Below, piece after piece: positions 7,238 through 63,211 of a DNA stretch of 64,000 bases. The position numbers and the translations under genes were made by a program. Source of the DNA: Patescibacteria group bacterium (GTDB lineage: Bacteria > Patescibacteriota > Saccharimonadia > Saccharimonadales > 2-12-FULL-41-12). Position 1 is the first letter of the stretch; each line of letters begins with the position of its first letter. The notes under the pieces are model-generated. The model was not told the origin of the DNA, ran no database searches, and saw nothing but the letters and a program-made list of their open reading frames with translations. The DNA lies in NCBI GenBank assembly GCA_038064875.1, contig JBBTSC010000001.1, forward strand, positions 251,004 to 315,003, given 5' to 3'.

Positions 7238-7837
7238 TTATTTAGTTATAACTTGGTCGACTAGACCGTATTTTTTGGACTCTTCGGCTGTCATCCAGAA
7301 GTCTCTCTCCATATCTACATGAATCTTGGCAAGCTTTTGGCCAGTATTCTCTGCCATGATTTGCTCAAGTAGTCTCTTGACTCTGAGTGACTCTTTTAGA
7401 TCAATTTCTTGATCTGTAACTTTGCCTCGCGTACCGCTTGAAGGCTGGTGGATCATGACAGTCGCATGCTTTAGAAGTGATCTCTTGCCTTTAGCCCCAC
7501 TTGATAGTAAAAATGCTGCAGCACTCGCTTGTACACCAATACCAATAGTCTGAACGTCAGGTTTGATGTAATTCATCGTATCGTAGATAGCAAGCGCATC
7601 ATAGACACTCCCACCAGGGCTATTAATATATAGCTTAATATCTTGAGTAGCGTCTTCGTTTGCCAGAAAAAGTAGTTGAGCCACAATCAAGTTGGCACTG
7701 TGTTCATTAACGTCTGTTCCCAAGAAGATAATTCGGTCTTTGAGCAAACGACTGTAAATATCATACGCTCGCTCAATACGCCCCTCTTGTTCAATCACGG
7801 TTGGTATAAGTACTGATTGCGGAGATTTGTTAGTCAT
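7238..7837 (-). CDS. clpP: ATP-dependent Clp protease proteolytic subunit
   Basis: ClpP family with the Ser-His-Asp context retained ([26 protein letters not shown]). The ORF track starts at TTG 7855, but that codon lies upstream of the predicted -10 box, so ATG 7837 (MTNKSPQS...) is preferred. Confidence 0.93.
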
Positions 7838-7844
7838 ATCAACA

Positions 7845-7882
7845 ATTATAGCCAACTAGCACTCGTGAGTCAAGAGTGCTAA
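7845..7882 (-). promoter_or_regulatory. CIRCE inverted repeat fused to the clpP promoter
   Basis: Minus strand reads TTAGCACTC-TTGACTCAC-GAGTGCTAG (7882-7856), matching the CIRCE consensus TTAGCACTC-N9-GAGTGCTAA in 17 of 18 arm positions. TTGACT inside the spacer, then 17 nt, then TATAAT (7850-7845) forms a sigma70-like promoter. Confidence 0.8.
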
Positions 7883-7883
7883 T

Positions 7884-8891
7884 TTAGATATCCTGCTCTT
7901 GTAATTTAGCTATGTTTTCCATGAGCCGAATGCGAACTCCTGTGTAGCAAGTTTCTAGCCGTCCTTCGAAATTTAGATCTGGAATCTGTGGTGACATAGG
8001 TGATTTACAATAACCAATGCTCTTACCTATAGTCTTTCTCATTACTGCTTTTGCAGGCAACGGATTGGGTGCTTCGTCAGAAGAAGCAAACTCGTATGAC
8101 TCTTGGAGTATATTGTCGATAGCCCTTGCCCTACCACCATCTTTAAAAGAAGGAAGTTGCTTTGCTTCCCACATTTGCTTTATAAGACGAGGGGCCCAAT
8201 GGCTAACAACTGATATTGCGCCATCCGCACCTGCACCAAAATGACGCAAGTTAAGAGCATCATCGCCAGAATATACTAGAAAATCTGGGTTTTCTCTCTT
8301 AATCTCAGCTGTCTGGCCAGGATCACCTGATGCAATTTTTATACCTACGATATTATCTACACCACTAGCAAGCTTTAGGATAGTTTCTGTGTCTACTGCT
8401 CTTCCAGTCCGGGCTGGGATATCGTACATTATTACTGGTTTGCCATCCGCAGCATCTGCAACTCTTTCATAGTAGTCAATTATTCCTGCCTGTGGCGGCC
8501 TATTGTAATAAGGTGAAACTACGAGTAATCCACTAAGTTCTTCTATCTTACTAGCTTGTTCTGTAAGCTGAACTGCTTCTTTTGTGGTATTTGCTCCGGT
8601 ACCAGCCAGTACTGGGATATTGACATTATCTACAATATCTCTCACAAGCCTTACCTGATCACCAGAAGATAATGCGGAGCTTTCTCCTGTAGTCCCAGCG
8701 ATAACCAAACCTTCAGACCCAGATTCTTGCAAGAAATTAGCAACTTTCAGGGATTGTAAACGATCCGAGACATCAGCTCTAAAATCAAAAGGTGTGATCA
8801 TAGCAGTTATCACGGTTCCAAAAGGAGACCTTTCTACTATTTCTTGGTCAGTTTTTAATGGCGCAAGTTCCATTCTTGAATCAAAGCTCAT
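7884..8891 (-). CDS. DapA-family class I aldolase (dihydrodipicolinate synthase / N-acetylneuraminate lyase family); substrate not assigned
   Basis: Motifs GTTGES, SPYYNRP, YDIPARTG and the Schiff-base Lys context VGIKIASGD. It carries about 40 extra C-terminal residues compared with typical DapA. Confidence 0.85.
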   Translation of the reverse strand: MSFDSRMELAPLKTDQEIVERSPFGTVITAMITPFDFRADVSDRLQSLKVANFLQESGSEGLVIAGTTGESSALSSGDQVRLVRDIVDNVNIPVLAGTGANTTKEAVQLTEQASKIEELSGLLVVSPYYNRPPQAGIIDYYERVADAADGKPVIMYDIPARTGRAVDTETILKLASGVDNIVGIKIASGDPGQTAEIKRENPDFLVYSGDDALNLRHFGAGADGAISVVSHWAPRLIKQMWEAKQLPSFKDGGRARAIDNILQESYEFASSDEAPNPLPAKAVMRKTIGKSIGYCKSPMSPQIPDLNFEGRLETCYTGVRIRLMENIAKLQEQDI

Positions 8892-13337: not shown

Positions 13338-14828
13338 TTATAGTGCTATCGCTACCGGGGGTCGCATCTTTGCTAGTTCACTGAGCACACCATGAACAGG
13401 ATGATTCTCAAAATCATCAAATGCTCCATTATCAGCTCCATCTATATTCGGTAGAACAGCCTGAGCCATAACTGCCTCATATTGTGGTGCCCACTTGCGA
13501 GAACCTCTTCTAGCGGTTACAGAACAATTATCAACCATATGGGCTACACCAGCTTTCTTCATATATGGATTGAGCGAGTCAACAGCTTCGATGATTGATT
13601 CGTTGACAATCTCTGACATGTGATGGCCCTTGCTCATTAACACATCGACTTGTGCCATCATGGCTGCAGCATAAACCCCTGCTACTTTTGTATCAATTTC
13701 AACTTCAGCTACGGTTAATGGATTCATCCTAACTTCGGCTCCTACTTGCCACATCGGGGTGCCTCCAATTTCAAACATCGGGTAATCACGCTCATTGTCT
13801 GCTATAACTTCCGCGATTTCTCGACCACTTGATACATCTGCATATATTTTTTCCGTAAGTTCACGTAACGGACCATAGGCAGACCTGTATGCTTGTCTGA
13901 AAACTGGTTTTTCATCTTCTGGTATGGAATCGTAGAGACCCTTTAAGCCCTTCTCGGAAATCGTTGAAGAGATCGGGCCGACTAATGATTCAACAACGTG
14001 CAAATAGGCCGGTACATCTCTCATAGCTCCAGAGACAGTTAAGTCTTTATACATAGCCTCAACTATTCCGTGGACACCGCCGAGCAAAACAGCTCTTTCG
14101 CCAAATATGTCAGATCTCCATTCGTTTTCTAGAGTTGTCTGGAAAGTGTATGGTGCACCTAACATTCGGGACCATCCAAGAGCTAGATCAGTCTCTCTCT
14201 GCCCACCTTGGCTAACAGCAAAACTGGTATTTATACCGCTATCTTGCTCATAAAGTTTCCTAACAGAAGGGCCCATACCTTTAGGGCACACTCCTATGAT
14301 ACCTACGTCCGGACGGGGAGCCTCTCCCATATTTTCTAGATGCCCTAGCCAGAACCCGTGAGACAGACCGATTACAGAGCCAGATTTTGCAAGACCCACA
14401 AATTCTTGCCCGTGTTTTGCCATCGCGGCATCAGATATCAACATCAGCGAAAGATCCGCATCATCAATCGCTCCTTCTACCGTATCAAGTGTGCCATTTT
14501 TGACATTAAAGCCTGCTTCCTCTGCGCCAGCACGTGATTTACTTCCATCACGCAGACCTACTACTACTTGAGTTTTATCACCAAGTCCAGCTGAATAAAG
14601 AGAGTCCCGAATATTTTGTGCCTGTGCTGGTCCTTGCGAACTCCAGCCTAGTACTGCAATTTTTGCGACTCCGCTTAGAGCTTGTGGCAAACCATCATGC
14701 AAACGGTCACCCTCTTCATTGTAGCCACGCATAACAGTCTCACTTGCACCACCAAGCTCTACCGTCAGTAGGGAGTTAGCAAATATTTCTGACTCAAAAT
14801 TGTTAGACTGGTTCGATTGTGCACTCAT
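13338..14828 (-). CDS. ilvC: Ketol-acid reductoisomerase, long class II, plant-like type
   Basis: Collinear resemblance to plant KARI as I recall it: GWSSQGPAQAQNIRDS, GLSHGFWLGHL, CPKGMGPSVRKLY, SDIFGERAVLLGGVHG, NESIIEAVDSLNPYM, MVDNCSVTARRGSRKWAP. ATG 14828 is preferred because the TTG at 14894 used by the ORF track coincides with a predicted -35 box. Confidence 0.9.
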   Translation of the reverse strand: MSAQSNQSNNFESEIFANSLLTVELGGASETVMRGYNEEGDRLHDGLPQALSGVAKIAVLGWSSQGPAQAQNIRDSLYSAGLGDKTQVVVGLRDGSKSRAGAEEAGFNVKNGTLDTVEGAIDDADLSLMLISDAAMAKHGQEFVGLAKSGSVIGLSHGFWLGHLENMGEAPRPDVGIIGVCPKGMGPSVRKLYEQDSGINTSFAVSQGGQRETDLALGWSRMLGAPYTFQTTLENEWRSDIFGERAVLLGGVHGIVEAMYKDLTVSGAMRDVPAYLHVVESLVGPISSTISEKGLKGLYDSIPEDEKPVFRQAYRSAYGPLRELTEKIYADVSSGREIAEVIADNERDYPMFEIGGTPMWQVGAEVRMNPLTVAEVEIDTKVAGVYAAAMMAQVDVLMSKGHHMSEIVNESIIEAVDSLNPYMKKAGVAHMVDNCSVTARRGSRKWAPQYEAVMAQAVLPNIDGADNGAFDDFENHPVHGVLSELAKMRPPVAIAL

Positions 14829-14865
14829 AGCTAGTAACTCCACATGTTGGTTAAGTATTTTCGGT

Positions 14866-14894
14866 ATTGTATTACCAATATTTTGGGATTGCAA
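14866..14894 (-). promoter_or_regulatory. Candidate promoter for ilvC (TTGCAA-N17-TACAAT)
   Basis: On the minus strand, TTGCAA is at 14894-14889 and TACAAT at 14871-14866, with 17 nt between. It sits directly downstream of the terminator at 14903-14925. Confidence 0.5.
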
Positions 14895-15324: not shown

Positions 15325-15819
15325 TTACATAACGTGCAGACCCAACTCTCTAGTACGTTCTGTAGGGACAGCATAGGTGTCTAGGAGTTTGAGCTCGCAT
15401 TCTACCTTTCTAATCGTTTCTACCGCATAACCACGTCTTAACTGTTTTTGTTCGACGCTTCTTCTTTTATGTGCATCACTACTTGTTATGACTTTAAATC
15501 CATTTAAGTATATGTCTATCATCACAATTCCGTCACTGCCAAAAGGTGGATAGCTAATACGCGAAAGATCATCGAAAGCTTCCTCTACAACTTCTCTATC
15601 TTGCCTATAATACTCACCTGTGGCTTCTATGTCTTGCTGAACACCTTGGGCCAGATTAACAAATCTATTCCAATTTTCTACAACCTGTCCTTTTGTGCGA
15701 GCTGTAAATTCAGCAACAACATTAGAAGGTAGCGCTTCGTCAACTTGCTTTCCTAGTTCTCGCTCATGATTTCCTGCCATAGTTAGCAGTACTATATAAT
15801 CATGAATATCTACTGTCAA
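15325..15819 (-). CDS. Hypothetical protein (164 aa)
   Basis: The ORF start overlaps the rsmD stop by 4 bp, so it is probably co-translated in the recG-rsmD operon. No recognisable family. Confidence 0.55.
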   Translation of the reverse strand: MTVDIHDYIVLLTMAGNHERELGKQVDEALPSNVVAEFTARTKGQVVENWNRFVNLAQGVQQDIEATGEYYRQDREVVEEAFDDLSRISYPPFGSDGIVMIDIYLNGFKVITSSDAHKRRSVEQKQLRRGYAVETIRKVECELKLLDTYAVPTERTRELGLHVM

Positions 15820-16349
15820 TTGCTCTTATAGAAGATGAGCTGAATATCCCCATATTTTTGAGCTTTTACTGGCTTAAATCCTTGTATGTCAAGTGGCTCT
15901 TCCGAACCCGGGTAGGACAAGACAAATGTACTTGTATCCTTCATATGTCGTGCTAATTGCCGGATCACGTCTGGCCTAATGTCATCGTAAGGAGGGTCGC
16001 AGACGATCACATCAAATTTTCTAGCACTGTTGGTATTTGACCAGACTTTGCAGTTCATCTTCACCACTTGAAATTCCTTCTCATCAACCCCTAAGCCCTC
16101 TGCAGACTCCTTTATAGAACGGTACGCCTTTTTGTCGACATCTATCGCAACGACATTTTTTGCGCCCCGACTGAGCGCCTCAAAAGCAATCGCACCACTG
16201 CCTGCATATGGATCCAAAAAACTTAGATCTTTAATATCGCCTAGTGTGTTGAATATAGCGCCTCGTGCTTTTTCACTCATTGGGTGTGTTCGTTTGCCCC
16301 CTGGGGAACGAAATATTCGACCTTTTAATAGTCCAGAAATTATTCTCAT
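15816..16349 (-). CDS. rsmD: 16S rRNA (guanine966-N2)-methyltransferase family
   Basis: 177 aa with the typical RsmD layout: MRIISG..KGR N-terminus, an SAM-binding LDPYAGSGA segment and the DPPY motif. Confidence 0.87.
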   Translation of the reverse strand: MRIISGLLKGRIFRSPGGKRTHPMSEKARGAIFNTLGDIKDLSFLDPYAGSGAIAFEALSRGAKNVVAIDVDKKAYRSIKESAEGLGVDEKEFQVVKMNCKVWSNTNSARKFDVIVCDPPYDDIRPDVIRQLARHMKDTSTFVLSYPGSEEPLDIQGFKPVKAQKYGDIQLIFYKSN

Positions 16350-16365
16350 GATGCTTATTATACCT

Positions 16366-18399
16366 TTAATTGAGCGTGGTAAATATCTGGAATTCTTTGA
16401 CTCGCTTTTTAAACTCAGGATATTTATTGATATCGAGCGTCTTCACATGTTTTTTGACCAGGCTACTCGTGTACTCTATAAATTTTGCATCTGACATATC
16501 TACCATTCTGAAATCCAGGGCTCCGTGTTGCAAAGATCCATAGACCGCCCCAGGACCACGTAGCTCGAGGTCAAATTGAGCTAGCTTGAATCCGTCATTG
16601 ACATGAGTCATTTTATCTAACCTATATGTATTAGATGTCTTGTCAGTAGGTACTAGATAACAATACCCTTGCCATTTGCCTCGACCAACCCTACCTCTGA
16701 GTTGATGTATTTGTGCTAGACCAAAACGCTCTGCGCTCTCAATGACCATGATGCTCGCATTCGGCATATCTACACCGACTTCTATTACAGTAGTGCTGAC
16801 CAAAATATCTATTTTACCATCTGCAAAATTGTTCATTATTTTGTCTTTTTCATCTTGTTTTATGCGTCCATGAACTACTTCTATCTTTGCAGTTGGTAGA
16901 GCCTTTTCGTATATCTTTACAACCTCTGCGACTGAATTTGCCTTCAAACTACTAGAAGGGTCAATCACTGGACAAACGACGAAAACCTGACGTTTTCCCT
17001 TTATCTCTTTTTCTATGGCGGTAAATACTGTCTTTCTGTCATCCCAGCCGACAAGCTTGGTTGCTATCTCTTTCCTACCTGGGGGCTTATCGTGAATTAT
17101 TGATATATCTAATTCCCCAAATATTGTCAGAGCTAGAGACCGAGGTATTGGTGTGGCTGTCATTGAGAGAAAATGTGGAGCCAGCTTGCCTGTCTTTTGT
17201 AATTCTTTACGCTGATCCACGCCAAACCTATGTTGCTCGTCAATCACCACCAAAGCAAGATCCTTGAAACTTGTTCCTTTGCTTATAAGTGAGTGAGTGC
17301 CTATTAATATGCCAGGATTGCCTTCAGCAAAGTATTTGCGAATTTCTTTTTTTTCTTTGTCTTTTTGACTACCTACTAGTAATTTTACCTGCTGTTCAAG
17401 ACCCAACTTCAACAAATATTGACTAAAAGTCTTGAAATGTTGTTTGGCCAGAATCTCAGTTGGCGACATGATGGCAATTTGTGCATCTTTCTTGAGACAG
17501 AACAAACTAGCGAACAACGCAACCATGGTCTTCCCGGAGCCAACGTCGCCTTCAACGATCCGGTTCATTGGTTGGCTTGATCCTAAATCTTTAATAACTT
17601 GCCACGCTATCTTTCTCTGGTCATCCGTCAAGTCAAATTCTAGACTGTCAGTCAACTTTTTAAGCCCACGAGTATCTTCTTCTGTGTATTCAAATTGTGG
17701 AGCTTTATACAGCTTTAACTCTTGTCTATTGAGCTGGCTGGCGAACATTGCTACAAAAAGCTCGTCAAAAGTTAGTCTTTTCCTCGAACTTTGTATATCA
17801 TCTTTTGACTCTGGTAAATGAATTTTACAGATAGCCTCATATCTACTTATAAGCTCGGTTTCCTTGCTCACTTCTTTCGGTAGCCAGTCAGCGAAGTCTT
17901 TTGAACCAAGTTGTTTGAATACTTCAGCGTAGATTTTGCGAATCTTTGTAGATTTGAGCGTTTTCGTCTCTCTATATATTGGCAGTATCTTCGCCGTGTT
18001 GACAGGGAAATCACTAACAAGCTCAATACTGGGGCTCGTAATAGAAAATTGACTTCTCCTCAGATCGTATACACCACTTATAAAATATTCCTGTCCCGGT
18101 TTTATTGAGTTTTTTCTATACGGCTGGTTGAACCATACTAATTTGACACTTCCGGTGCCGTCAGAAGCTATCGCCTCCGTTATATGCATACCTCTCCTGA
18201 CATATCTGCCAACAATATTGTTGATCCTTGCTCTTGTACTAATCTGACCCATCGATAGATCTTTGATTTTCTCTACCTGCGAATAGTCTTCATAGCGCCT
18301 TGGATAATTCTCCAACAAATCAGATAAATCATGAATCCCAATCTTTTCTAAGTCACTTAGCAGGGATTTTCCAACACCTTTAATTTCATCAAGTTTCAT
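16366..18399 (-). CDS. recG: ATP-dependent DNA helicase RecG
   Basis: 677 aa with an N-terminal wedge/OB region and helicase motifs GDVGSGKT, DEQHRFG, SATPIPR-like MTATPIPRS and QLRGRVGRG. Confidence 0.95.
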   Translation of the reverse strand: MKLDEIKGVGKSLLSDLEKIGIHDLSDLLENYPRRYEDYSQVEKIKDLSMGQISTRARINNIVGRYVRRGMHITEAIASDGTGSVKLVWFNQPYRKNSIKPGQEYFISGVYDLRRSQFSITSPSIELVSDFPVNTAKILPIYRETKTLKSTKIRKIYAEVFKQLGSKDFADWLPKEVSKETELISRYEAICKIHLPESKDDIQSSRKRLTFDELFVAMFASQLNRQELKLYKAPQFEYTEEDTRGLKKLTDSLEFDLTDDQRKIAWQVIKDLGSSQPMNRIVEGDVGSGKTMVALFASLFCLKKDAQIAIMSPTEILAKQHFKTFSQYLLKLGLEQQVKLLVGSQKDKEKKEIRKYFAEGNPGILIGTHSLISKGTSFKDLALVVIDEQHRFGVDQRKELQKTGKLAPHFLSMTATPIPRSLALTIFGELDISIIHDKPPGRKEIATKLVGWDDRKTVFTAIEKEIKGKRQVFVVCPVIDPSSSLKANSVAEVVKIYEKALPTAKIEVVHGRIKQDEKDKIMNNFADGKIDILVSTTVIEVGVDMPNASIMVIESAERFGLAQIHQLRGRVGRGKWQGYCYLVPTDKTSNTYRLDKMTHVNDGFKLAQFDLELRGPGAVYGSLQHGALDFRMVDMSDAKFIEYTSSLVKKHVKTLDINKYPEFKKRVKEFQIFTTLN

Positions 18400-22240: not shown

Positions 22241-23611
22241 TTACTTCCTTAAAAATTCGTTTAATGTTGTTTTGATATCTGTTGCTTGATGATACTTACA
22301 ATCTTTTAGATTCTTGAGCGTATCTTTGCTAACTTTAGGTCCAATAATATGTTTGTAACCCAGCTTTGCTGATTCGCTAATTCTCTTTTGGACGATTGCT
22401 ACGTGGCGCACTTCTCCGGAAAGACCAAGTTCACCAAAGACAACTGCATCGCTCTTAAGCGCCATTCCCTTGGCAGCAGAGCCTATCGCCATGGCCACAG
22501 CTAAGTCCGCTGCGGGGTCAGATAATTTTATTCCACCAACTATATTGATATATACATCTTTGCTGGAGAGATTGAGCTTAGTTCTTTTTTCTAGCACAGC
22601 AATTAGCAAGTTCAACCTATTGAGATCAAAGCCACTTGATGCGCGCTTAGGGTAACCAAAATGAGACTCATTGACCAAAGCCTGGACTTCCACAAGAAGT
22701 GGGCGCGATCCTTCTACGGTAGCGAGGATTATTGAGCCATCGGTTATCTGTCGCTCACTCAATAGAGCTTCTGAAGGGTTGGATACTTCTTTTAGCCCAG
22801 AGTCTACCATCTCAAAAATTCCTGCTTCGTTTGTTGAGCCATAGCGGTTTTTTATTGCACGTAGGACCTTGAACCCACCGTAGCGATCACCTTCTAGTTG
22901 CATCACCACGTCAACAATATGCTCAAGTATTTTAGGCCCAGCGATGTTGCCTTCTTTGGTCACATGACCGATCATCACAACTGTTGTGCCTGATTTTTTT
23001 GCCACATTCATAATCAAATTAGTCGAATTAGTTATCTGAGAAACTGATCCTGTTGAAGAGCTCACTTCACTCATCCCAATAGTCTGGATAGAATCAATAA
23101 TTACCAAATCATATTTGGAATTACTTATCTCACCAGCAATGTCATTCGTGCTGTTACTGGCAACGATATGTAGATTGCCTTGTTTTGCACCTAATCTGAC
23201 CGCTCTACCGGCGACTTGAGCTACCGACTCCTCTCCGCTAACGTAAAGGACTTTTCTGCTTTTGGCGACACTAGAAGCAATCTGCATTGTCAAAGTACTC
23301 TTGCCAATACCAGGCTGTCCGACAAGTAGATTAATACTAGCTGGGGCAAAACCACCACCAAGCACCAAGTCTACATCTGACATCTCAGTTTTGATACGTC
23401 CCTTTTGGTCTTTGCTAACTAAATCATTCCATTTGTCACTGATGCTTAGGTTTTTTGCGGATCCAAGAAAATTTGATTCTTTTTTACTGTCCAAAGAGAT
23501 CGATTCTTCAAATGAGTTCCAGGAATCACACGACGGACACTTACCCGCCCAAGTGGCTGAAGCATAGCCACATTGACGGCAGACAAAATTAGATGATTTC
23601 TTCGCCATCAC
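22241..23611 (-). CDS. radA: DNA repair protein RadA/Sms
   Basis: Zinc finger CRQCGYASATWAGKCPSCDSW, Walker A GQPGIGKST, KNRYG motif and a Lon-like C-terminal domain. Confidence 0.95.
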   Translation of the reverse strand: MMAKKSSNFVCRQCGYASATWAGKCPSCDSWNSFEESISLDSKKESNFLGSAKNLSISDKWNDLVSKDQKGRIKTEMSDVDLVLGGGFAPASINLLVGQPGIGKSTLTMQIASSVAKSRKVLYVSGEESVAQVAGRAVRLGAKQGNLHIVASNSTNDIAGEISNSKYDLVIIDSIQTIGMSEVSSSTGSVSQITNSTNLIMNVAKKSGTTVVMIGHVTKEGNIAGPKILEHIVDVVMQLEGDRYGGFKVLRAIKNRYGSTNEAGIFEMVDSGLKEVSNPSEALLSERQITDGSIILATVEGSRPLLVEVQALVNESHFGYPKRASSGFDLNRLNLLIAVLEKRTKLNLSSKDVYINIVGGIKLSDPAADLAVAMAIGSAAKGMALKSDAVVFGELGLSGEVRHVAIVQKRISESAKLGYKHIIGPKVSKDTLKNLKDCKYHQATDIKTTLNEFLRK

Positions 23612-24564
23612 TGTGCACCATCCAGTGGGTTGATGTTGGCATCTATTGCTTGCATTAGACCTTTCTCTTCAGTAACAAGTTCATTCCTCTGGGCAATGAT
23701 ATTATTATATGTCTCGATCTGTTCTTTTGTCTTAGACAGAAGGTTATTGTATTCAGAGACAGAACTATTAAATGCTTCTATCTGTGGATTTAACTCCTCG
23801 CTCTGCCCTCTTGCAATTCCCTGCTCTATACTCTTGCGTCGTCCGAGCAACTCATCGCTCATAGCTTTCAAGTCCTCTTGGTTTTGATCAATAGTAGCTT
23901 TTAGGGATTCAAGTTGCTTGTCGTACGCTGAAACTTGATCCTGAATAGACACAAAGGCCTGTTCATAATCACTAGAGTACTTCACAATCTTTTGGCGATC
24001 GGTGAAATATTTAGCGTAATATTCTTCTAAGACCGGAGAAAGTTCTGCTACTTCCGTACCCATGATCGAATGAAGTTCGTTCGCTACTATTGAGGGATCT
24101 TTGGCTCTATATGCTTCAACGTTCTTACGAACTCTGGGATTCTTGACATTTGGATAGACTCTATCTATTTCTTTATCAATCTTAGACTTTTCCTTGCGCG
24201 GAAGTCTGTCATAGGCAGCGTGGAGCATCTCGTGTGCTGATGTAACCTGCATGACACCTGCAAGCTTAGGCTCATCGACATTAAGTACAAAAATACCCTT
24301 ATGCTCCACATAGCAACCGAGAACAATTGACTGCTCATCTACCGTGCAATCTTCTGTGAAAGCCTTCTTGTCGTCAAATCTTGGTTTATTAACGTAGAAG
24401 ACTTCTCTGGCATGACCTGTCATTGTAGTATCCTGCGCCATTTTCAACACAGAATCAGTCGGCGTATAGCTACGCAGGATCAGCCAGTCAGATAAATTCT
24501 GAAAGTTTGTCGCAATAACAAGTAGTACTAAAAATACTCCAATGAGTGATAATGTTTTTTTCAT
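23608..24564 (-). CDS. Hypothetical membrane-anchored protein with an HExxH motif and a C-terminal coiled coil
   Basis: N-terminal TM/signal segment (LIGVFLVLLVIA), HEMLH at VTSAHEMLHAAY, then a heptad-rich tail of about 120 aa. Its stop overlaps the radA start by 4 bp. Confidence 0.62.
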   Translation of the reverse strand: MKKTLSLIGVFLVLLVIATNFQNLSDWLILRSYTPTDSVLKMAQDTTMTGHAREVFYVNKPRFDDKKAFTEDCTVDEQSIVLGCYVEHKGIFVLNVDEPKLAGVMQVTSAHEMLHAAYDRLPRKEKSKIDKEIDRVYPNVKNPRVRKNVEAYRAKDPSIVANELHSIMGTEVAELSPVLEEYYAKYFTDRQKIVKYSSDYEQAFVSIQDQVSAYDKQLESLKATIDQNQEDLKAMSDELLGRRKSIEQGIARGQSEELNPQIEAFNSSVSEYNNLLSKTKEQIETYNNIIAQRNELVTEEKGLMQAIDANINPLDGAQ

Positions 24565-24590: not shown

Positions 24591-27065
24591 TTAGAGAGTT
24601 TCGTCGTTAACAGAGAATGTCAAACTGCCTCTTTTTGCACCTATATCAATAATAGCACCTTTTGGTAGTTTGCCACTTATAATCTTATCTGAAATGTACT
24701 CTTCGATATGATTTTGGATAACTCTTCTCAGTGGACGAGCTCCATTTTTTGGGTCATATCCTTCTGCAACAAGTATTTTCTTTGCGCTCGGCGAGAGCTT
24801 CACACTAACTCCGTTTTTCACCAGACGTTGGTTTAACTCCTCTACTTGCAGATCGAGGATCTTCAGCATCTCAGTTTTACTCAGAGACCCGAAGACGATC
24901 ACTTTATCTATCCTATTGAGAAGTTCTGGACGCATCATCTTACGCAAACTCTTCATAACTTCAACCTTATTTTTATCGTCCTTCAAATCTTTATATTCTT
25001 TGTCGTCTTTTGACGATACAGAAAAGCCGAATTCGCCATCTTTTTGTAGCTTTTCTGCACCAATATTGCTGGTCATGATCACAAGAGTATTCGTAAAGTC
25101 CACAGTTCTACCTTTGCCATCAGTAAGTCTGCCATCTTCTAAAATCTGAAGTAATATGTTGAAGATTTCTGGATGTGCTTTTTCTATCTCGTCAAATAAT
25201 ATTAGACTATACGGTTGTCTACGAATTTTGTCAGTAAGCTGATTCCCTTCACCATATCCCACATATCCTGCGGGAGCGCCTATCAGTCGAGATATATTGT
25301 GATGTTCACCAAATTCACTCATGTCAATTCTGATTAATGATTGTTCACTTCCAAAGAATTCTCGGGCTAATACTTTGGCCATTTCTGTTTTACCTACACC
25401 TGTTGGGCCTAGGAATACAAATGAACCAATTGGTCGTTTTTCACTTGAAACACCACTTCTGTTACGACGGATTGCCTTGGCCAAAGAAACAACAGCTTCT
25501 TCCTGTCCTATAACGTATTTAGACAATGTCTTTTCCAAGTTCAACAGGTAATTTGCTTCACTTTTAATAACTTTTGTCACAGGAACACCTGTCATTTTAG
25601 AGACAACTTCTGCAACGGTGTCACTATTTATCTCTAGTGCTTTGCCCTTGTTAATCTCAGACTGCATGCTCATCAATTCTTGGCTGAGCTGGCTGACTCG
25701 TGTTTTATATTTAGCGGCTTGCTCATAATCCTCTTGGAGAGCAGAATCTTCTATCTTTACTTGTAGTAGGCGGAGTTCTTTTTGGATATCCCTATATTCT
25801 GGAGGCGTTTTGCCTTGGTTGACACGTACATGTGCCGAGGCTTCGTCCATCAAATCGATGGCTTTGTCTGGCATAAAACGGTCATTAATATAACGATCTG
25901 CATAACGAACAATATCTTCAATCACCTCGTCACTTATTGATACATTATGATAGCTTTCATAGTGTTTTCTAAGCCCTTTTAATATATGAATTGTCTCACT
26001 GGGGGTAGCGGGCGGAACAACAATCGGCTGAAAACGACGCTCAAGCGCAGCATCCTTCTCAATATATTTGCTGTATTCATCGATAGTTGTTGCGCCGATA
26101 AGTTGCATTTTGCCTCGGGCAAGTGCTGGCTTTAAGATATTTCCGGCGTCCATTGATCCTTCTGCGCTACCGGCACCTACTATCAGATGAAGTTCATCTA
26201 CAAAAACTATTGTCTGAGTATCGTTCTCTAGCTCAGCCATAACTTTCTTTAGACGTTCTTCAAATTCACCGCGGTACTTTGTACCGGCTATCATGGCAGC
26301 CAGATCGAGCATAACTATACGTTTGTTCAGCAAGTTATCTGGGACATCTTCACTTACAATTCGAGCAGCCAAACCTTCAACGATAGCTGTTTTGCCCACT
26401 CCCGGCTCTCCTATGAGGACTGGATTATTTTTTGTCCTTCTACTCAATATCGTGATAATTCTTTTTATTTGAACATCTCGACCAATGACAGGATCTAATT
26501 TTCCGCCTCGTGCTTTGTCGGTCAAATCAGTACCAAAGAAATCAAGCGCACTTCTAGCTTGGCCAGAGCGTCTCTGTCTTTTGGCTTCGAGCATACCCTG
26601 ACCGCCCATATTATTACGATTTAGAAATTGTTCAAGTTCTCTTATTAAGACCGCTGGCTTTACTCCCAAGTTGCTCAACAGTTCTGTTGCTCGAGAATTT
26701 TTTTGACTTAATATACTGTAAAGTATATGTTCTGTACCACAGTATTCACTGTTAAATTCACGTGACAACTCAAATGCCATACGAAGAGTTAATTTGGCTA
26801 CTTCGCTCAGTCCTTTGAGTGGCAAATTTGCCATCATGGCATGAGTCACGGTGACTTGCTTTGCACCTTCCATAGTAACGCCACTATCTTTTAGCATTTT
26901 AGCAGCCACTGAATTATCCTGCGCTAACAACCCGAGTAGTAGATGCTCTGTACCAACATAAGGGCTACCTTGTTTTCTAGCAATCATGTCAGAATGCCCA
27001 AGACTAGCAAGCGCATTTTCGCTCAAGTTATTCAGATAATCATGAAAGTCAGATTGTGGTAACAT
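24591..27065 (-). CDS. clpC: ATP-dependent Clp protease ATP-binding subunit ClpC-type (class I AAA+)
   Basis: Two Clp_N repeats; two Walker A sites ([16 protein letters not shown]); a short M-domain with a UVR-like segment; and a possible ClpP-docking G-F tripeptide (EFGFS). The length of 824 aa fits ClpC better than ClpB. Confidence 0.9.
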
Positions 27066-27110
27066 TTGTTTTGCCCCTTTTGCTAGTTTTTTATAACTAA
27101 CCTAACTCCA

Positions 27111-27148
27111 ATTGTAGCGAATTAGCACTCGTCAGTCAAGAGTGCTAA
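27111..27148 (-). promoter_or_regulatory. CIRCE inverted repeat fused to the clpC promoter
   Basis: Minus strand reads TTAGCACTC-TTGACTGAC-GAGTGCTAA (27148-27122), a perfect match to the CIRCE arms. TTGACT in the spacer, then 17 nt, then TACAAT (27116-27111). A leader of about 40 nt with AAAGGGG precedes ATG 27065. Confidence 0.82.
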
Positions 27149-27170
27149 TATACGCATTTTAAGTCTGTTA

Positions 27171-47705: not shown

Positions 47706-48719
47706 GTGAGCGATCTATCTACAAAACTGCAAAATGTCGGACTAAATACAAAAATAATTGCGGCCTTGGATGAGAGCCCAGGAACTATTGCCAACAGACT
47801 TACTTCTGTCGGACTCACGCCAAGTGTGGAGTTAGCAGAGAAATATCGTGACGATTTAATTACGGCCGAAGGTATTGAAAATTATGTAGGTGGCATTATC
47901 CTGCATCCTTCAACTGCCAACCAAACAATAGATGGTCAAAACGCTGTTGCTCTGCTTAACTCAAAGGGCGTTGGCACCTTTGTAAAAGTAGACCAAGGAG
48001 TAGAAACAGACCCATCAAACGGATATAACGTGACTAAAGGATTTGATACTTTGGAGCAACAACTAAATGAGGCCAAAGCACTCGGGGCTGTAGGTGCAAA
48101 ATGGAGAAGTTTTATAGCTGTTGCCGACCCAGCTGACCCACTATATCAAGAAAATGTCAAAGCTAACGCTGATGGTTTAGCAAAGTATGCAAAAGCTAAC
48201 CAAGTTTTAGAGCTCATTCCGATTGTTGAGCCAGAAATATCTTTTGCAAAAATGAACCCTGCGCACGCCGGCGGAGTGCACACCATCGAAGAATCTGAGG
48301 CATCAGCACGGTATGTTCTAGCTGAGACTGTGAGTGCTATGCAAAATGAAGGCGTAGACCTATCAGCAATCATTCTAAAGATTGGATTTGTCTTGCCAGG
48401 CAAAGACACAGTCAGTGAAACAACTCCTCTTAACTATGAAGATATTGCAACAAGGACTCTTAGCGTGATCAGAGATGTACTGCCAAAAGATCTTAAAACC
48501 ATCGTTTTCCTCTCTGGAGGTCTCAATATACCAGACGCAACAGGATGTCTAAGGGCAATTAACGAAATTGCAAACGCTGACGACCCAATACTAAGCGCAA
48601 GTTACGGACGTGGCGTCCAAGCTGAGGCGCTTAAAAAGTTTGCTGTAGACGACCACGCAGGCACTCAAAGTGAATTCCTAAGCGCGTCTCAGGCCAATGC
48701 TTCAGTCCTCCGCAAATAA
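47706..48719 (+). CDS. Class I (Schiff-base) fructose-bisphosphate aldolase-like protein
   Basis: IIAALDESPGTIANRL, YRDDLITAEGIENYVGGIILHPST and FVKVDQG parallel the class I FBA motifs (AADESxGTxxKRL, YRxxL, IKVDKG). GTG start with a GAGGG Shine-Dalgarno sequence and TGGTATAAT upstream. Confidence 0.78.
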   Translation: MSDLSTKLQNVGLNTKIIAALDESPGTIANRLTSVGLTPSVELAEKYRDDLITAEGIENYVGGIILHPSTANQTIDGQNAVALLNSKGVGTFVKVDQGVETDPSNGYNVTKGFDTLEQQLNEAKALGAVGAKWRSFIAVADPADPLYQENVKANADGLAKYAKANQVLELIPIVEPEISFAKMNPAHAGGVHTIEESEASARYVLAETVSAMQNEGVDLSAIILKIGFVLPGKDTVSETTPLNYEDIATRTLSVIRDVLPKDLKTIVFLSGGLNIPDATGCLRAINEIANADDPILSASYGRGVQAEALKKFAVDDHAGTQSEFLSASQANASVLRK

Positions 48720-48727
48720 CTAGCTAT

Positions 48728-49633
48728 TTAAGACTTGGCCTTATTAGCTGAGCCGAACATATCTATCTTGTCCTCTACAACTTCTTGTACCGCGCCGATA
48801 ACTTCGTCCATTAGCTTTACAACAGCAAATTCTTTGGGATGCTCTTTTAGAACTTTTTCGAGTGTCTTTCTGTAGGCAATCCTCATATCGGAATTAATAT
48901 TTATCTTGGTTACGCCTATGATGGCAGCGTTTTTGAAATAATGTCCTGGGGTACCGCTACCGCCATGAAGGCTAATATTGCACCCAATAGATGCTCTTAC
49001 CCGGCTCAGGAGCTCAAGGTCTAATATTTTGGGTACTGGATATGAGCCATGCAAATTACCAATAGCAACCGCGAAGGTATCAATACCCGTAGCATCAACA
49101 AATGCTTTCGCTCCTTCGGGTGTAGAGAAAGTATTCTTTATCTCCTCGTAGTCAATTGTTTCTTCATGCACATTAGAACTACCGCCAAAATAATGTGGCT
49201 CACTCTCAACAATGGCGCCAGTTTTTTTAGCATACTCGACTACTTCTTTAGTCTTGGCAATTATCTCTTCTTCTGTGGCCTTTTTGTCCGCTTGAGAAAT
49301 ATCAATATGGATGAATTCATAACCTGCATCTATGGCTTCCTTGCAGGACTCTACGGATGGGCTGTGGTCTAAATTAATATACATTTCAAGCCCAAGCTCT
49401 TGACGATAATTATCAACCATATCTCTAACATTTTCTATGCCAATAGCATCGACTTCACCTTGGCTGACTTCAACTAGTACCGGAGAATTTTTTGCAACGG
49501 CTGCTCTTGCCACTGCTTTTAGGGTGTCTTGGTTATCCAGATTAAACGCTCCTACTGCAAAATGCTCCTTGCGCGCTCTGGCCATAAGGTCTCGTGCCTT
49601 GGCTGTATTCTTTTTTATTTCTTCTATCCCCAC
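48728..49633 (-). CDS. Class II (metal-dependent) fructose/tagatose-bisphosphate aldolase
   Basis: FAVGAFN, NLDHS and LHGGSG motifs of the class II FBA/TBP aldolase family. Confidence 0.88.
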   Translation of the reverse strand: MGIEEIKKNTAKARDLMARARKEHFAVGAFNLDNQDTLKAVARAAVAKNSPVLVEVSQGEVDAIGIENVRDMVDNYRQELGLEMYINLDHSPSVESCKEAIDAGYEFIHIDISQADKKATEEEIIAKTKEVVEYAKKTGAIVESEPHYFGGSSNVHEETIDYEEIKNTFSTPEGAKAFVDATGIDTFAVAIGNLHGSYPVPKILDLELLSRVRASIGCNISLHGGSGTPGHYFKNAAIIGVTKININSDMRIAYRKTLEKVLKEHPKEFAVVKLMDEVIGAVQEVVEDKIDMFGSANKAKS

Positions 49634-61300: not shown

Positions 61301-62093
61301 AGACTGCACTGTCGTATCCTCTGGTTATGGCTGCATTGTCAGAATAGGCAGAAATAATATCCTTATTAGACTTATCGTATGTATCTTTGATCTTGCTGAA
61401 CAGACTTGCGTCCGCTGGCAAGCCGTTGATATTCCATTTTGCGTTAAAAATTTTGTGGCGACAATGTTCACTGTTGATCTGTGCGTACATCATGATTTCT
61501 ACGTCTGTCGGATCGTGATTGATCTTGGTAAATTCTTCTGTCAGGTAATCCAAATCATCGTCTGATAATCCTGTACTGAGTTCTTTATTCGCTTCAACAA
61601 GTGCCTGCTTGCCCTGCTCGTTCACACTGTAGGTTTTGAGAGGTTTTGGCTCTCCGACATTAAACATATCTGATAGCTGATCAACACCGCTCACGATGAT
61701 CTCACTCATCCTGTCAGAAAATATATCTGTAAGTTTTTTAAGATCAATCTCCGCTTCGCTCTGGATAAAGTAGATTATTCCTCGTTCGACTCGGCCGACG
61801 CTTGCACCGCTGTTTTTGATAATATCGCTAGCTTTTGATGACCATGGTGATATCGTGCCTAGCCGTGGCAATACTACAAATTGTTGATTATGTGTGGTTT
61901 CTTGAAATGGCTCTGAATAATCAAACAGGTTACCTATAATTTCTTTGTCTTTGTCTGACAGTTTATCGCTATTAACAAAATGAACATACTGTGCAGATAT
62001 ATCAGATACTTTAGCTCCAGAACTTTTAAGGTCGGCAAGCAGAGATTTCTTGTTAGTTGCAGAAAGTGCCTGACCACCTTCTAGGATTATCAC
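58293..62093 (-). CDS. purL: Phosphoribosylformylglycinamidine synthase, single-chain large type
   Basis: 1266 aa with AIR-synthase-like repeats and a C-terminal glutaminase carrying GVCNGCQ and HPE. Confidence 0.96.
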   Translation of the reverse strand: MIILEGGQALSATNKKSLLADLKSSGAKVSDISAQYVHFVNSDKLSDKDKEIIGNLFDYSEPFQETTHNQQFVVLPRLGTISPWSSKASDIIKNSGASVGRVERGIIYFIQSEAEIDLKKLTDIFSDRMSEIIVSGVDQLSDMFNVGEPKPLKTYSVNEQGKQALVEANKELSTGLSDDDLDYLTEEFTKINHDPTDVEIMMYAQINSEHCRHKIFNAKWNINGLPADASLFSKIKDTYDKSNKDIISAYSDNAAITRGYDSAVFAPKDGVYESTDEPVHLVTKVETHNHPTAISPDPGAGTGIGGEIRDEGATGIGARPKMGLTGFTVSNLNIPELKQPWETEPNYPDRIVNSLGIMIEAPLGGAHYGNEFGRINLAGYFRTFEQKIDGVNWGYHKPIMLAGGLGNVKGANTHKKQIEPGDYIIVLGGPAMLIGLGGGAASSVNSGQSDSELDFASVQRANAELERRAQEVITTCANMGETNPIVSIHDVGAGGLSNALPELVHDAGVGAEFELRDVLNAEPDMSPLEIWCNEAQERYVMAIKEKDLERFKEICARERCTYSIVGKASKEQKLVVSDSQFNNKPVDLPMGALFNNNRRQLLEFDRTERSNHKADYSKLSVEDSIKRVISLPSVASKKFLITIGDRSVGGLTVRDQMVGPWQVPVADVAVTASTFGSKTGEAMAVGERTPIAIYDSPASVRMAVAEAVTNIASAPIESLSKVTLSANWMAATQHEGQKEALHDAVSAVSKFCQNIGVTIPVGKDSLSMKTIWDDTAVTSPVSLVITGFAPVNDVNNVLTPELKSGDTKLILIDLGQGKNRLGGSALAQVYGLTDSDCPDIDPEQLKNYFEVIQSLNSEGKILAYHDRSDGGLFATLAEMMFAGRKGVNVNLEYQSGDIKNKLFSEEIGAVIQVKSNQSGDIIDEIKAKVTGNVFEIGEVTKEQIIQITDKDFNYSAERSDLESLWEANSNAIRRLRENPESVDSEEKVIADDSNAGLPDKVTFEIPTAPKSSSGKPKVAILREQGVNGQVEMAAAFTHAGFEAHDIHMSDLISGKKKLDDYSVLAVCGGFSYGDVLGAGAGWAKTILNNKDLKEQFKQFFERPDTLTLGVCNGCQMLSHLKSIIPGAEAWPSLQQNISEQFEARVASVEIEDSPSVLLGGMAGSVLPVPVAHGEGRMVFDGNPQNISAKFVDSKGQNTEVYPWNPNGTKSGITSVTSEDGRATILMPHPERAFLSIQNSHNPYDSKYSPWFKLFTNAYDWATQKAS

Positions 62094-63211
62094 CCACGTA
62101 CTCCCAAGCTGTCAGATTTAAATTCAATATCTAGAGGTTTGATCCTCACTGCCTTCTCGTCAGCTACAACATGTCCTGCGTCCCAAGCTTTCAAATTCAC
62201 AGAACTAGCTATCTCAACCACTTGCTCTGCGTACTTTTCTGGCACGTAGATAGCAAAGCCTACTCCCATATTGAAGTTTCCGTACATTTCCTCGACAGAG
62301 GCATTTGCCTTTTCTTTGATAAATTCAAATTCCGCTGGGTATTCAGGGACTTGCTCGATTATATAGGCTAGATCATCTCTGTTAGCACGCATAAGCTTTC
62401 GCCAGCCATGACCTGTGACATTCACCATATAATGCAGTTCAATTTTTGCTTCTTGTAGAGCCCTAACTAGGTCAACATATATGTGAGTCGGAGATAGTAA
62501 TGCTTCGCCGTAGGTTCGACCATCAGCGATTTTAGTGCCGTAGCCTTCTGTTAGTCCTTCTGCGATTTTGCGAGCCATAGTTAGACCATTCGCGTGTATC
62601 CCACTGCTCTCTACCAAAATGATCCGATCACCTTCCGCTAATTTGTCGCCCAGCACAAGGTTAGATTTGTCGGCGATACTACCAACTGCAGAACCTGCAA
62701 GATCGATTGTGCTTGGCTCGATAATTCCTTTTAGTGCTGGCGTCTCGCCACCACCCCAGCTTGCTCCTGCCAACTGACATGCTTTAGCCCAGCCAGATAT
62801 TAGATCGTTGGCTCGTTCTTTATCTTCCATCCATGCACTGTCGCCTATAGCGAAATATGCGTTGACTACATTTGGCAGAGCTCCGACAACTATCAGGTCG
62901 TTTACGATCATAGCGATTGTGTCTTGAGCTATTTGGTCATAATAACTTTTGCCACCGATTCCTCGCATTTCGTCCGCGACCAAGTTCTTTGTGCCCAAAC
63001 CTTCTACCACAAGTGCACGGTACATATTGTCTTCTTCCCAGACATAGGCTGACTCGCCACGGCTGAGTGGGAGCTCTTTCATTCCGAATTTTTCTAAGTT
63101 GCTAGATGTCGTTTTAGCCATATCCTGCGACAATACTTTTGCAGGGTCTATTGATCCGTAATTCACTCCGGAATCTGAATAAGTAAGCTGGGATTCGTCG
63201 GATCCTGTCAT
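62090..63211 (-). CDS. purM: PurM-family protein (AIR synthase-like, divergent)
   Basis: GTKNLVA, VNDLIVVGA, GGETPAL, SSGIHANGL, VTGHGW and FNMGVGF are collinear with the PurM motifs. It overlaps purL by 4 bp. Confidence 0.82.
   Translation of the reverse strand: MTGSDESQLTYSDSGVNYGSIDPAKVLSQDMAKTTSSNLEKFGMKELPLSRGESAYVWEEDNMYRALVVEGLGTKNLVADEMRGIGGKSYYDQIAQDTIAMIVNDLIVVGALPNVVNAYFAIGDSAWMEDKERANDLISGWAKACQLAGASWGGGETPALKGIIEPSTIDLAGSAVGSIADKSNLVLGDKLAEGDRIILVESSGIHANGLTMARKIAEGLTEGYGTKIADGRTYGEALLSPTHIYVDLVRALQEAKIELHYMVNVTGHGWRKLMRANRDDLAYIIEQVPEYPAEFEFIKEKANASVEEMYGNFNMGVGFAIYVPEKYAEQVVEIASSVNLKAWDAGHVVADEKAVRIKPLDIEFKSDSLGVRG

Follow-up and report, generated by a model that had tools for sequence, protein, structure and literature searches.

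Here we describe an HrcA-type operator built into the promoter of clpP in a 64,000-nucleotide stretch of a Patescibacteria group bacterium genome (assembly GCA_038064875.1, contig JBBTSC010000001.1, positions 251,004 to 315,003; hereafter the window), whose gene content and matches point to a Saccharimonadales-type Saccharibacterium of ~41-43% GC. [quoted passage not shown] The CIRCE on the clpP promoter is genuine and conserved; it belongs to a known kind of element and involves no new mechanism. Our preferred reading, to which we assign a probability of roughly 0.8, is that HrcA represses a leaderless clpP by promoter occlusion, within an HrcA regulon that extends across the clade and takes in the Clp machinery.

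The clpP gene lies on the minus strand at 7238..7837 and encodes a protein of 199 amino acids (PF00574, E 1.7e-74; NF001368, 288 bits, above cut-off). Upstream of it on the same strand, CIRCE operator 1 occupies 7856..7882 and reads TTAGCACTC-N9-GAGTGCTAG, with the left arm TTAGCACTC at 7882-7874, the 9-nt spacer TTGACTCAC at 7873-7865 and the right arm GAGTGCTAG at 7864-7856; the arms match the consensus at 17 of 18 positions, the single mismatch being the last A of the right arm, which is changed to G. The first six bases of the spacer form the -35 hexamer TTGACT (7868..7873), followed after 17 nt by the -10 hexamer TATAAT (7845..7850), which stands 5 nt past the CIRCE. After the right arm the minus strand thus runs through TTGGC, TATAAT and the seven nucleotides TGTTGAT into the start codon ATG (7835..7837), which has no Shine-Dalgarno (SD) sequence and places the predicted transcription start site (TSS) at or next to 7837. 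An earlier note, made from the letters of this stretch, had claimed a 17/18 CIRCE match before clpP and a TTGACT within its spacer 17 nt from TATAAT; our re-reading of the minus strand agrees on both counts, and a promoter scan returned TTGACT-17-TATAAT at 11/12, a spacing within the 16-18 nt of sigma-70-type promoters.

The gene upstream of clpP, at 7884..8891 on the minus strand, belongs to the dapA family and, at 213.8 bits, passes the 206.15-bit cut-off of the dapA equivalog model TIGR00674. Its stop codon TAA (7886-7884) ends 1 nt before the CIRCE and 46 nt before the clpP ATG, the start used by public gene calls and by the N-termini of homologues. The 28-bp gap first given for this junction is correct up to TTG 7855, which opens the longest clpP open reading frame (ORF) from inside the promoter and has no ribosome-binding site, but not up to the real ATG. 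The exact 199-residue, ATG-started ClpP was found on eight public contigs, and metagenome assemblies, from groundwater among other sources, contain an identical clpP with its cassette, as does NCBI assembly GCA_964349495.1; in named genomes the closest ClpP is 82-84% identical and the closest ClpC ~64%.

A second copy of this cassette, which the earlier note had not mentioned, precedes the clpC-type gene on the minus strand. Operator 2 (27122..27148) reads TTAGCACTC-TTGACTGAC-GAGTGCTAA, is perfect at 18 of 18 arm positions and begins 22 nt past the nusA stop; its spacer again begins with a -35 hexamer, TTGACT (27134..27139), and after TTCGC between the CIRCE and the -10 comes TACAAT (27111..27116), 17 nt past the -35. 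Here a 45-nt stretch with an SD sequence, GGGG at 27077-27074, separates the -10 from the ATG at 27065. The gene (24591..27065) encodes a ClpC-type Hsp100 ATPase of 824 amino acids with Clp_N, two AAA modules and a short middle domain, and its FGF loop (residues 679-681) may serve to dock ClpP. With one operator before clpP and another before the clpC-type gene, both parts of the ClpCP protease carry the cassette. Measured against TTAGCACTC/GAGTGCTAA, the arms thus lie within two mismatches at both sites (one at site 1, none at site 2), and the 9-nt arm separation is exact at both and in all 18 clpP orthologues described below. CIRCE sequences with up to three mismatches were expected 0.05 times per shuffled window and observed twice, none of 100 shuffled windows yielded two sites, and allowing up to four mismatches revealed no CIRCE in the window besides these two.

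To follow the clpP promoter through evolution we used 80 ClpP relatives taken from metagenome contigs, blind to DNA motifs. Nineteen were more than 65% identical, and 18 of these, spanning 65-81% identity and including the near-duplicates L127 and L128, were judged, L144 being left out with only 13 nt of upstream DNA. All 18 share the tig-clpP-rpoB neighbourhood, all 18 carry a CIRCE with 0-2 mismatches directly upstream of clpP, and in all 18 a TTG-type hexamer falls within the 9-nt spacer with TAnnnT 17-18 nt further on. The conservation of the inverted repeat in related genomes, on which the earlier note had made its proposal depend, is therefore observed at all 18 close clpP promoters judged; before clpP in the 61 relatives at or below 65% identity, the best match had seven mismatches, a background level. 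Among the orthologues the -35 has four different starting points in the spacer, namely positions 1 (the one used in the window), 2, 3 and 5 (offsets 9, 10, 11 and 13), and both the -10 and the start codon shift along with it. Because the three elements move together, the hexamer appears to be read by polymerase rather than by HrcA, and the spacer probably hosts the -35 because its sequence, unlike that of the rest of the operator, can vary freely. Where an arm does carry a substitution in an orthologue, which is rare, the opposite arm shows no compensating change, which fits a protein-binding site and not an RNA stem.

Only in the window's species does dapA separate tig from clpP, the relatives having the order tig-cassette-clpP-rpoB. 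The strain variant L125 encodes an identical clpP with dapA missing between tig and clpP and the cassette unchanged; at L125:880-1175 the tig stop is followed by a half cassette (TTAGCACTCTTGACCGAGCC...), ~200 nt and then the complete cassette. We looked for such a half-CIRCE in the window's tig-dapA spacer and found none.

The position of the ATG, 7 nt after the -10, had been taken from the outset to imply a leaderless mRNA, and its recurrence supports that prediction: 16 of the 18 relatives have an in-frame ATG at a distance of 6-9 nt from the preceding -10, and in 11 the distance is exactly 6 nt. The exceptions, L140 and L143, have 23-26 nt between -10 and ATG and carry AGGAG or AAGGAG there. 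No SD sequence was found within 18 nt upstream of the window's clpP ATG, while most window genes have one. From this geometry we infer that the clpP mRNA is leaderless, with a TSS at or next to the A of the ATG. Leaderless mRNAs are common in Actinobacteria, Deinococcus-Thermus and Archaea. The clpP promoter resembles theirs in that its -10 box lies 6-7 nt before an ATG that would double as the TSS, with no SD; it differs in being a case predicted from geometry and conservation, in a genome that mixes SD-led and apparently leaderless genes. Similar spacings, TATAAT-7-ATG, TATTAT-6-ATG and TAGAAT-7-ATG, were seen at the window genes 15816-16349, 16366-18399 and 62090-63211 (minus strand), respectively, and with -10-like hexamers 6-7 nt before these ATGs leaderless starts may be frequent in the genome.

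We then asked how widely the cassette occurs by scanning ~185,000 species genomes for the pattern TTAGCACTC-TTGAC-N4-GAGTGCTA. At least 120 pattern loci were recovered, and about three quarters of the matches listed have titles naming Saccharibacteria, Saccharimonadales, Nanosyncoccus or Nanosynbacter; also among the matches listed are other Patescibacteria, some Chloroflexi, Streptococcus mitis/oralis and cyanobacteria. Among these listed matches the first downstream gene is dnaK at 31 or more sites, clpC-like at 27 or more, hrcA at 26 or more (19 of them in Patescibacteria), clpP at 9 or more, hsp20 at 7 or more, groEL at 2 or more, and groES and dnaJ at one or more each. Whether dnaK has the same module, a question raised with the first description of the clpP site, is answered by the relatives, in which at least 31 loci have the cassette before dnaK. 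A TAnnnT stands 16-18 nt from the spacer TTGAC at 96% of 96 Patescibacteria sites but at 16% of 25 sites from other phyla (again among the matches listed), against a background of ~4% per position, and this difference in coupling suggests that the embedded TTGAC is a working -35 specifically in the Patescibacteria lineage. Our best reading of this distribution is that the cassette serves as the standard heat-shock promoter of dnaK, clpC, clpP, hsp20 and hrcA in Saccharibacteria within Patescibacteria.

The promoters that share the cassette are not uniform. Starts compatible with a leaderless mRNA were seen, among the matches listed, at 9 of 26 clpC, 9 of 19 hrcA and 2 of 9 clpP sites, and at none of the listed sites before dnaK or hsp20. 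The dnaK promoters usually have a second, weaker CIRCE right after the -10 and then a long leader (L009, L012, L025, L065, L086, L105 and others). At the groES-groEL operon of a Saccharibacteria metagenome-assembled genome (L044:6320-6480, minus strand) we observed TTGACG-17-TATACT with a CIRCE 5 nt later, followed by an SD and the ATG, a classical layout which suggests that the lineage uses two operator positions; no Patescibacteria groES site in the form with the embedded -35 was present among the matches listed.

The presumed repressor co-occurs with the cassette in the clade. The ORFs behind the cassette in relatives encode HrcA (PF01628 and PF03444; TIGR00331, where they score below the cut-off), and their winged helix-turn-helix domain aligns to Thermotoga maritima HrcA (PDB 1STZ) with an E of 2e-17, which fits recognition of canonical CIRCE arms. 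In ~18 Saccharibacteria loci hrcA lies within 8 kb of dnaK, and with both genes carrying the site in relatives the system would be autoregulated. The short HrcA proteins of the clade (L113:1638-2424; also L034, L040, L050, L068, L075, L087, L101 and L109) retain an intact winged helix and are missing the first 80-100 positions of the Pfam C-terminal domain.

In the mechanism that we propose, the 48 bp before clpP would act as a fused operator, sigma-70-type promoter and start codon. Counting the A of the ATG as +1, the -10 would lie at -13 to -8, the -35 at -36 to -31 and the operator at about -45 to -19; the -35 would sit in the 9-nt operator spacer, which HrcA need not read, and the right arm would fill most of the spacer between -35 and -10. 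In the unstressed cell an HrcA dimer on both arms would block sigma region 4 and RNA polymerase from the -35; its footprint would take in the -35 along with the greater part of the spacer, which makes promoter occlusion the simplest model. As unfolded proteins accumulate HrcA would lose DNA binding, after which polymerase would start on the A of the ATG, or right beside it, and produce a clpP mRNA with neither leader nor SD. The cassette at 27.1 kb would control the ClpC-type partner ATPase, there with the 45-nt SD-bearing stretch, and HrcA, not CtsR, would govern the Clp protease in the Saccharibacteria lineage. HrcA binding, occlusion, the TSS and heat inducibility are all predicted at this promoter; in the established HrcA paradigm the repressor occupies CIRCE at normal temperature and is released by stress (PMC8762339). 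In this lineage the stress sensor may be GroEL, DnaK or HrcA itself. In TM7x transcriptomes 'clpB' and clpP increase together (bioRxiv 10.1101/2022.03.25.485537), which we count in favor of HrcA control.

Several observations weigh against this interpretation. No hrcA, dnaK, groEL, groES, hsp20 or dnaJ was detected in the 64-kb window by Pfam searches of ~47 substantial ORFs and by tblastn, so we infer the cognate repressor from relatives only, and the HrcA proteins of Saccharibacteria and other Patescibacteria are 225-249 amino acids long as opposed to 338-344 in characterized ones. The right arm of operator 1 is imperfect at one position. The gap between -10 and ATG is 7 nt in the window where the modal gap in relatives is 6 nt, which makes a 1-nt leader equally possible, and RNA reading through from dapA would carry the CIRCE hairpin, such that some clpP expression could come from upstream.

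This last point bears on the alternative that the inverted repeat, whether as its main role or as an added one, forms an RNA hairpin that serves dapA and nusA as intrinsic terminator or as stabilizer of the 3' end, and is not a repressor site. The CIRCE does begin 1 nt past the dapA stop and 22 nt past the nusA stop, the repeat folds as RNA at -18.4 kcal/mol (z = -2.6), and among the matches listed ~31 of 97 Patescibacteria cassettes follow a co-directional ORF at no more than 30 nt, and 42 of 97 have at least five T in the 8 nt after the repeat. At both window sites, however, only three T occur in the 8 nt after the stem, leaving a tail that is not U-rich, and the hairpin loop would be 9 nt. 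The arms are kept as sequence, identical to the cross-phylum CIRCE consensus, with changes that are not compensatory; the repeat holds a fixed register with the -10 and start codon that a terminator would not need, and L125, which has no dapA, retains the cassette unchanged. A terminator scan did not have the repeat in its output, but that scan admits loops of up to 8 nt, so that a 9-nt loop could never be reported and the result carries no weight. We therefore regard the hairpin as an unlikely explanation of the repeat, and a secondary terminator role beside the HrcA site as possible.

Considerably less probable is a relic operator, in which the lineage has lost hrcA, the CIRCE is unbound and the cassette persists as a strong constitutive promoter. 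Such a history would match the failure to find hrcA within the 64-kb window and the comparison with L113, where hrcA lies between nusA and clpC with two cassettes while the window has nusA-cassette-clpC. That arrangement without hrcA is nevertheless the common one (13 of 14 loci), with hrcA usually near dnaK, which lies outside the window, and all 18 orthologous clpP promoters retain the arms. Without selection, a pair of operators this close to consensus (0 and 1 mismatches of 18) would not persist, and the near-perfection of both sites makes a relic unlikely. We give still less credence to the idea that clpP is translated from TTG 7855, or made only from a dapA-clpP co-transcript, with incidental hexamers and a CIRCE that acts at most as a roadblock. 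TTG 7855 opens the longest ORF, and dapA and clpP are co-directional across a 46-nt gap, but no SD precedes this TTG, which falls within the -35/-10 spacer; homologues start at the position equivalent to the ATG, as do public gene calls, and the -10/ATG spacing is kept in 16 of 18 relatives whose upstream gene is tig, not dapA.

We also compared the presumed role of HrcA at the clp promoters with that of CtsR. No CtsR box (RGTCAAANANRGTCAAA) with up to three mismatches was found at 7838-7900 or 27066-27170, no ctsR gene was found within the 64-kb window, and upstream of clpC there is no ctsR, mcsA or mcsB, their place being taken by nusA in the window and in 14 related loci. The CtsR regulon of Firmicutes, which takes in clpP, clpC and clpE, is alike in having clpP and clpC as targets and in the order ctsR-mcsA-mcsB-clpC-radA, which the clpC...radA order of the window recalls; it differs in its operator, a heptad direct repeat that is not present at the window's clp promoters. 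The proposal that a clpP under CIRCE rather than CtsR would represent a rewired heat-shock regulon thus stands as to the conserved CIRCE and the missing CtsR box, and is tempered by precedents that make the rewiring less unprecedented, namely clpB and lon in Mollicutes and clpP in Streptococcus salivarius.

The closest functional parallel is found in the Mollicutes, where HrcA of Mycoplasma gallisepticum and Spiroplasma melliferum controls clpB, lon, dnaK and dnaJ from CIRCE sites upstream of the core promoter, sometimes in two copies (PMC5138195, PMC4245973). These bacteria are likewise genome-reduced and have HrcA as sole proteostasis regulator, AAA+ machines included, but they belong to another phylum, have no ClpP and use promoters largely without a -35, whereas the Saccharibacteria cassette has a strong -35 in the spacer and the proteolytic subunit itself among its targets. 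A clp gene also lies downstream of CIRCE in S. salivarius, where dual control of clpP by CtsR and HrcA is named in the title of Chastanet and Msadek 2003 (cited in PMC3842655), and in Lactobacillus gasseri, where clpL is under HrcA (PMC3192767); in both of these HrcA has been added to a Firmicutes CtsR system, while the window promoters have no CtsR box. In delta-proteobacteria groESL is the sole constant HrcA target and proteases are under sigma-32 (PMC545781). With the Bacillus subtilis operons groESL and hrcA-grpE-dnaK-dnaJ the window shares the operator consensus TTAGCACTC-N9-GAGTGCTAA, and the repressor family of relatives is identical. In the classical layout the operator follows the -10, at the TSS or in the leader, whereas the clpP operator encloses the -35; further differences from the B. 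subtilis-type class I system are clpP and clpC as targets, the predicted leaderless transcript and a clade HrcA of ~235 instead of ~340 amino acids. In a literature search outside which most subscription journals lay, we found nothing linking HrcA or CIRCE to Saccharibacteria or Patescibacteria, nothing, apart from a software citation, on leaderless mRNAs of Saccharibacteria, and no account of a -35 hexamer lying in a CIRCE spacer.

Saccharibacteria and other Patescibacteria make up a large, mostly uncultured part of bacterial diversity about whose gene regulation almost nothing is known, and these results outline a concrete, testable regulon for reduced genomes in which chaperones and the Clp protease alike appear to be controlled by a single repressor and a single compact cassette. 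For heat-shock biology the advance is incremental, a further case after Mollicutes of a reduced genome with proteases under HrcA; what sets it apart is an unusually tidy, clade-wide operator-in-promoter design with frequent predicted leaderless starts. The cassette is also a lead for a 45-bp, probably stress-inducible, SD-free expression element, and genetics in Saccharibacteria has recently become available (PMC10633639). A broader scheme, which we offer tentatively and consider doubtful as a whole, would make the ~235-residue HrcA, ~100 residues short, the sole master regulator of the entire set of proteostasis genes in Saccharibacteria and other Patescibacteria (dnaK, clpC, clpP, hsp20, hrcA and groESL), acting through a portable cassette of ~45 bp that fuses operator, -35, -10 and often the start codon. 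In that scheme the cassette may also terminate the preceding gene, and its repeated copies may drive rearrangements such as the hrcA between two cassettes in L113 and the half-cassette remnant in L125.

The remainder of the clpC operon (22241..24564, minus strand) consists of a 318-residue membrane/coiled-coil protein (23608-24564), which lies between clpC and radA (22241-23611); on the other side of clpC the neighbors in the window are nusA and a rimP-like gene. The synteny of clpC, the 318-residue protein gene and radA recurs in ~15 Saccharimonadales loci; clpP comes after the gene for the 318-residue protein in some loci of gut or oral type. The sequence of this protein combines a hydrophobic segment at the N-terminus with an HEMLH motif and a long coiled coil, and no family match to it was found in Pfam or NCBIfam. 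At L113:439-5607 two directly oriented cassettes enclose an hrcA gene that stands between nusA and clpC, and recombination between cassettes could insert or excise hrcA at this position. As a general history, deletion of hrcA from between nusA and clpC by such recombination was rejected, given that 13 of the 14 loci with the nusA-cassette-clpC synteny (the window and 12 others, L113 being the exception) are without hrcA there and that hrcA is normally near dnaK.

Two further observations concern metabolic genes of the window. A class I fructose-bisphosphate aldolase gene (47706-48719, plus strand) adjoins a convergent class II aldolase gene (48728-49633, minus strand), and the pair adjoins a block of pentose-phosphate and glycolysis genes. 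At 13338-14894 on the minus strand lies the gene for a 518-residue ketol-acid reductoisomerase with a duplicated C-terminal domain, in a type of genome that is usually poor in amino-acid biosynthesis.

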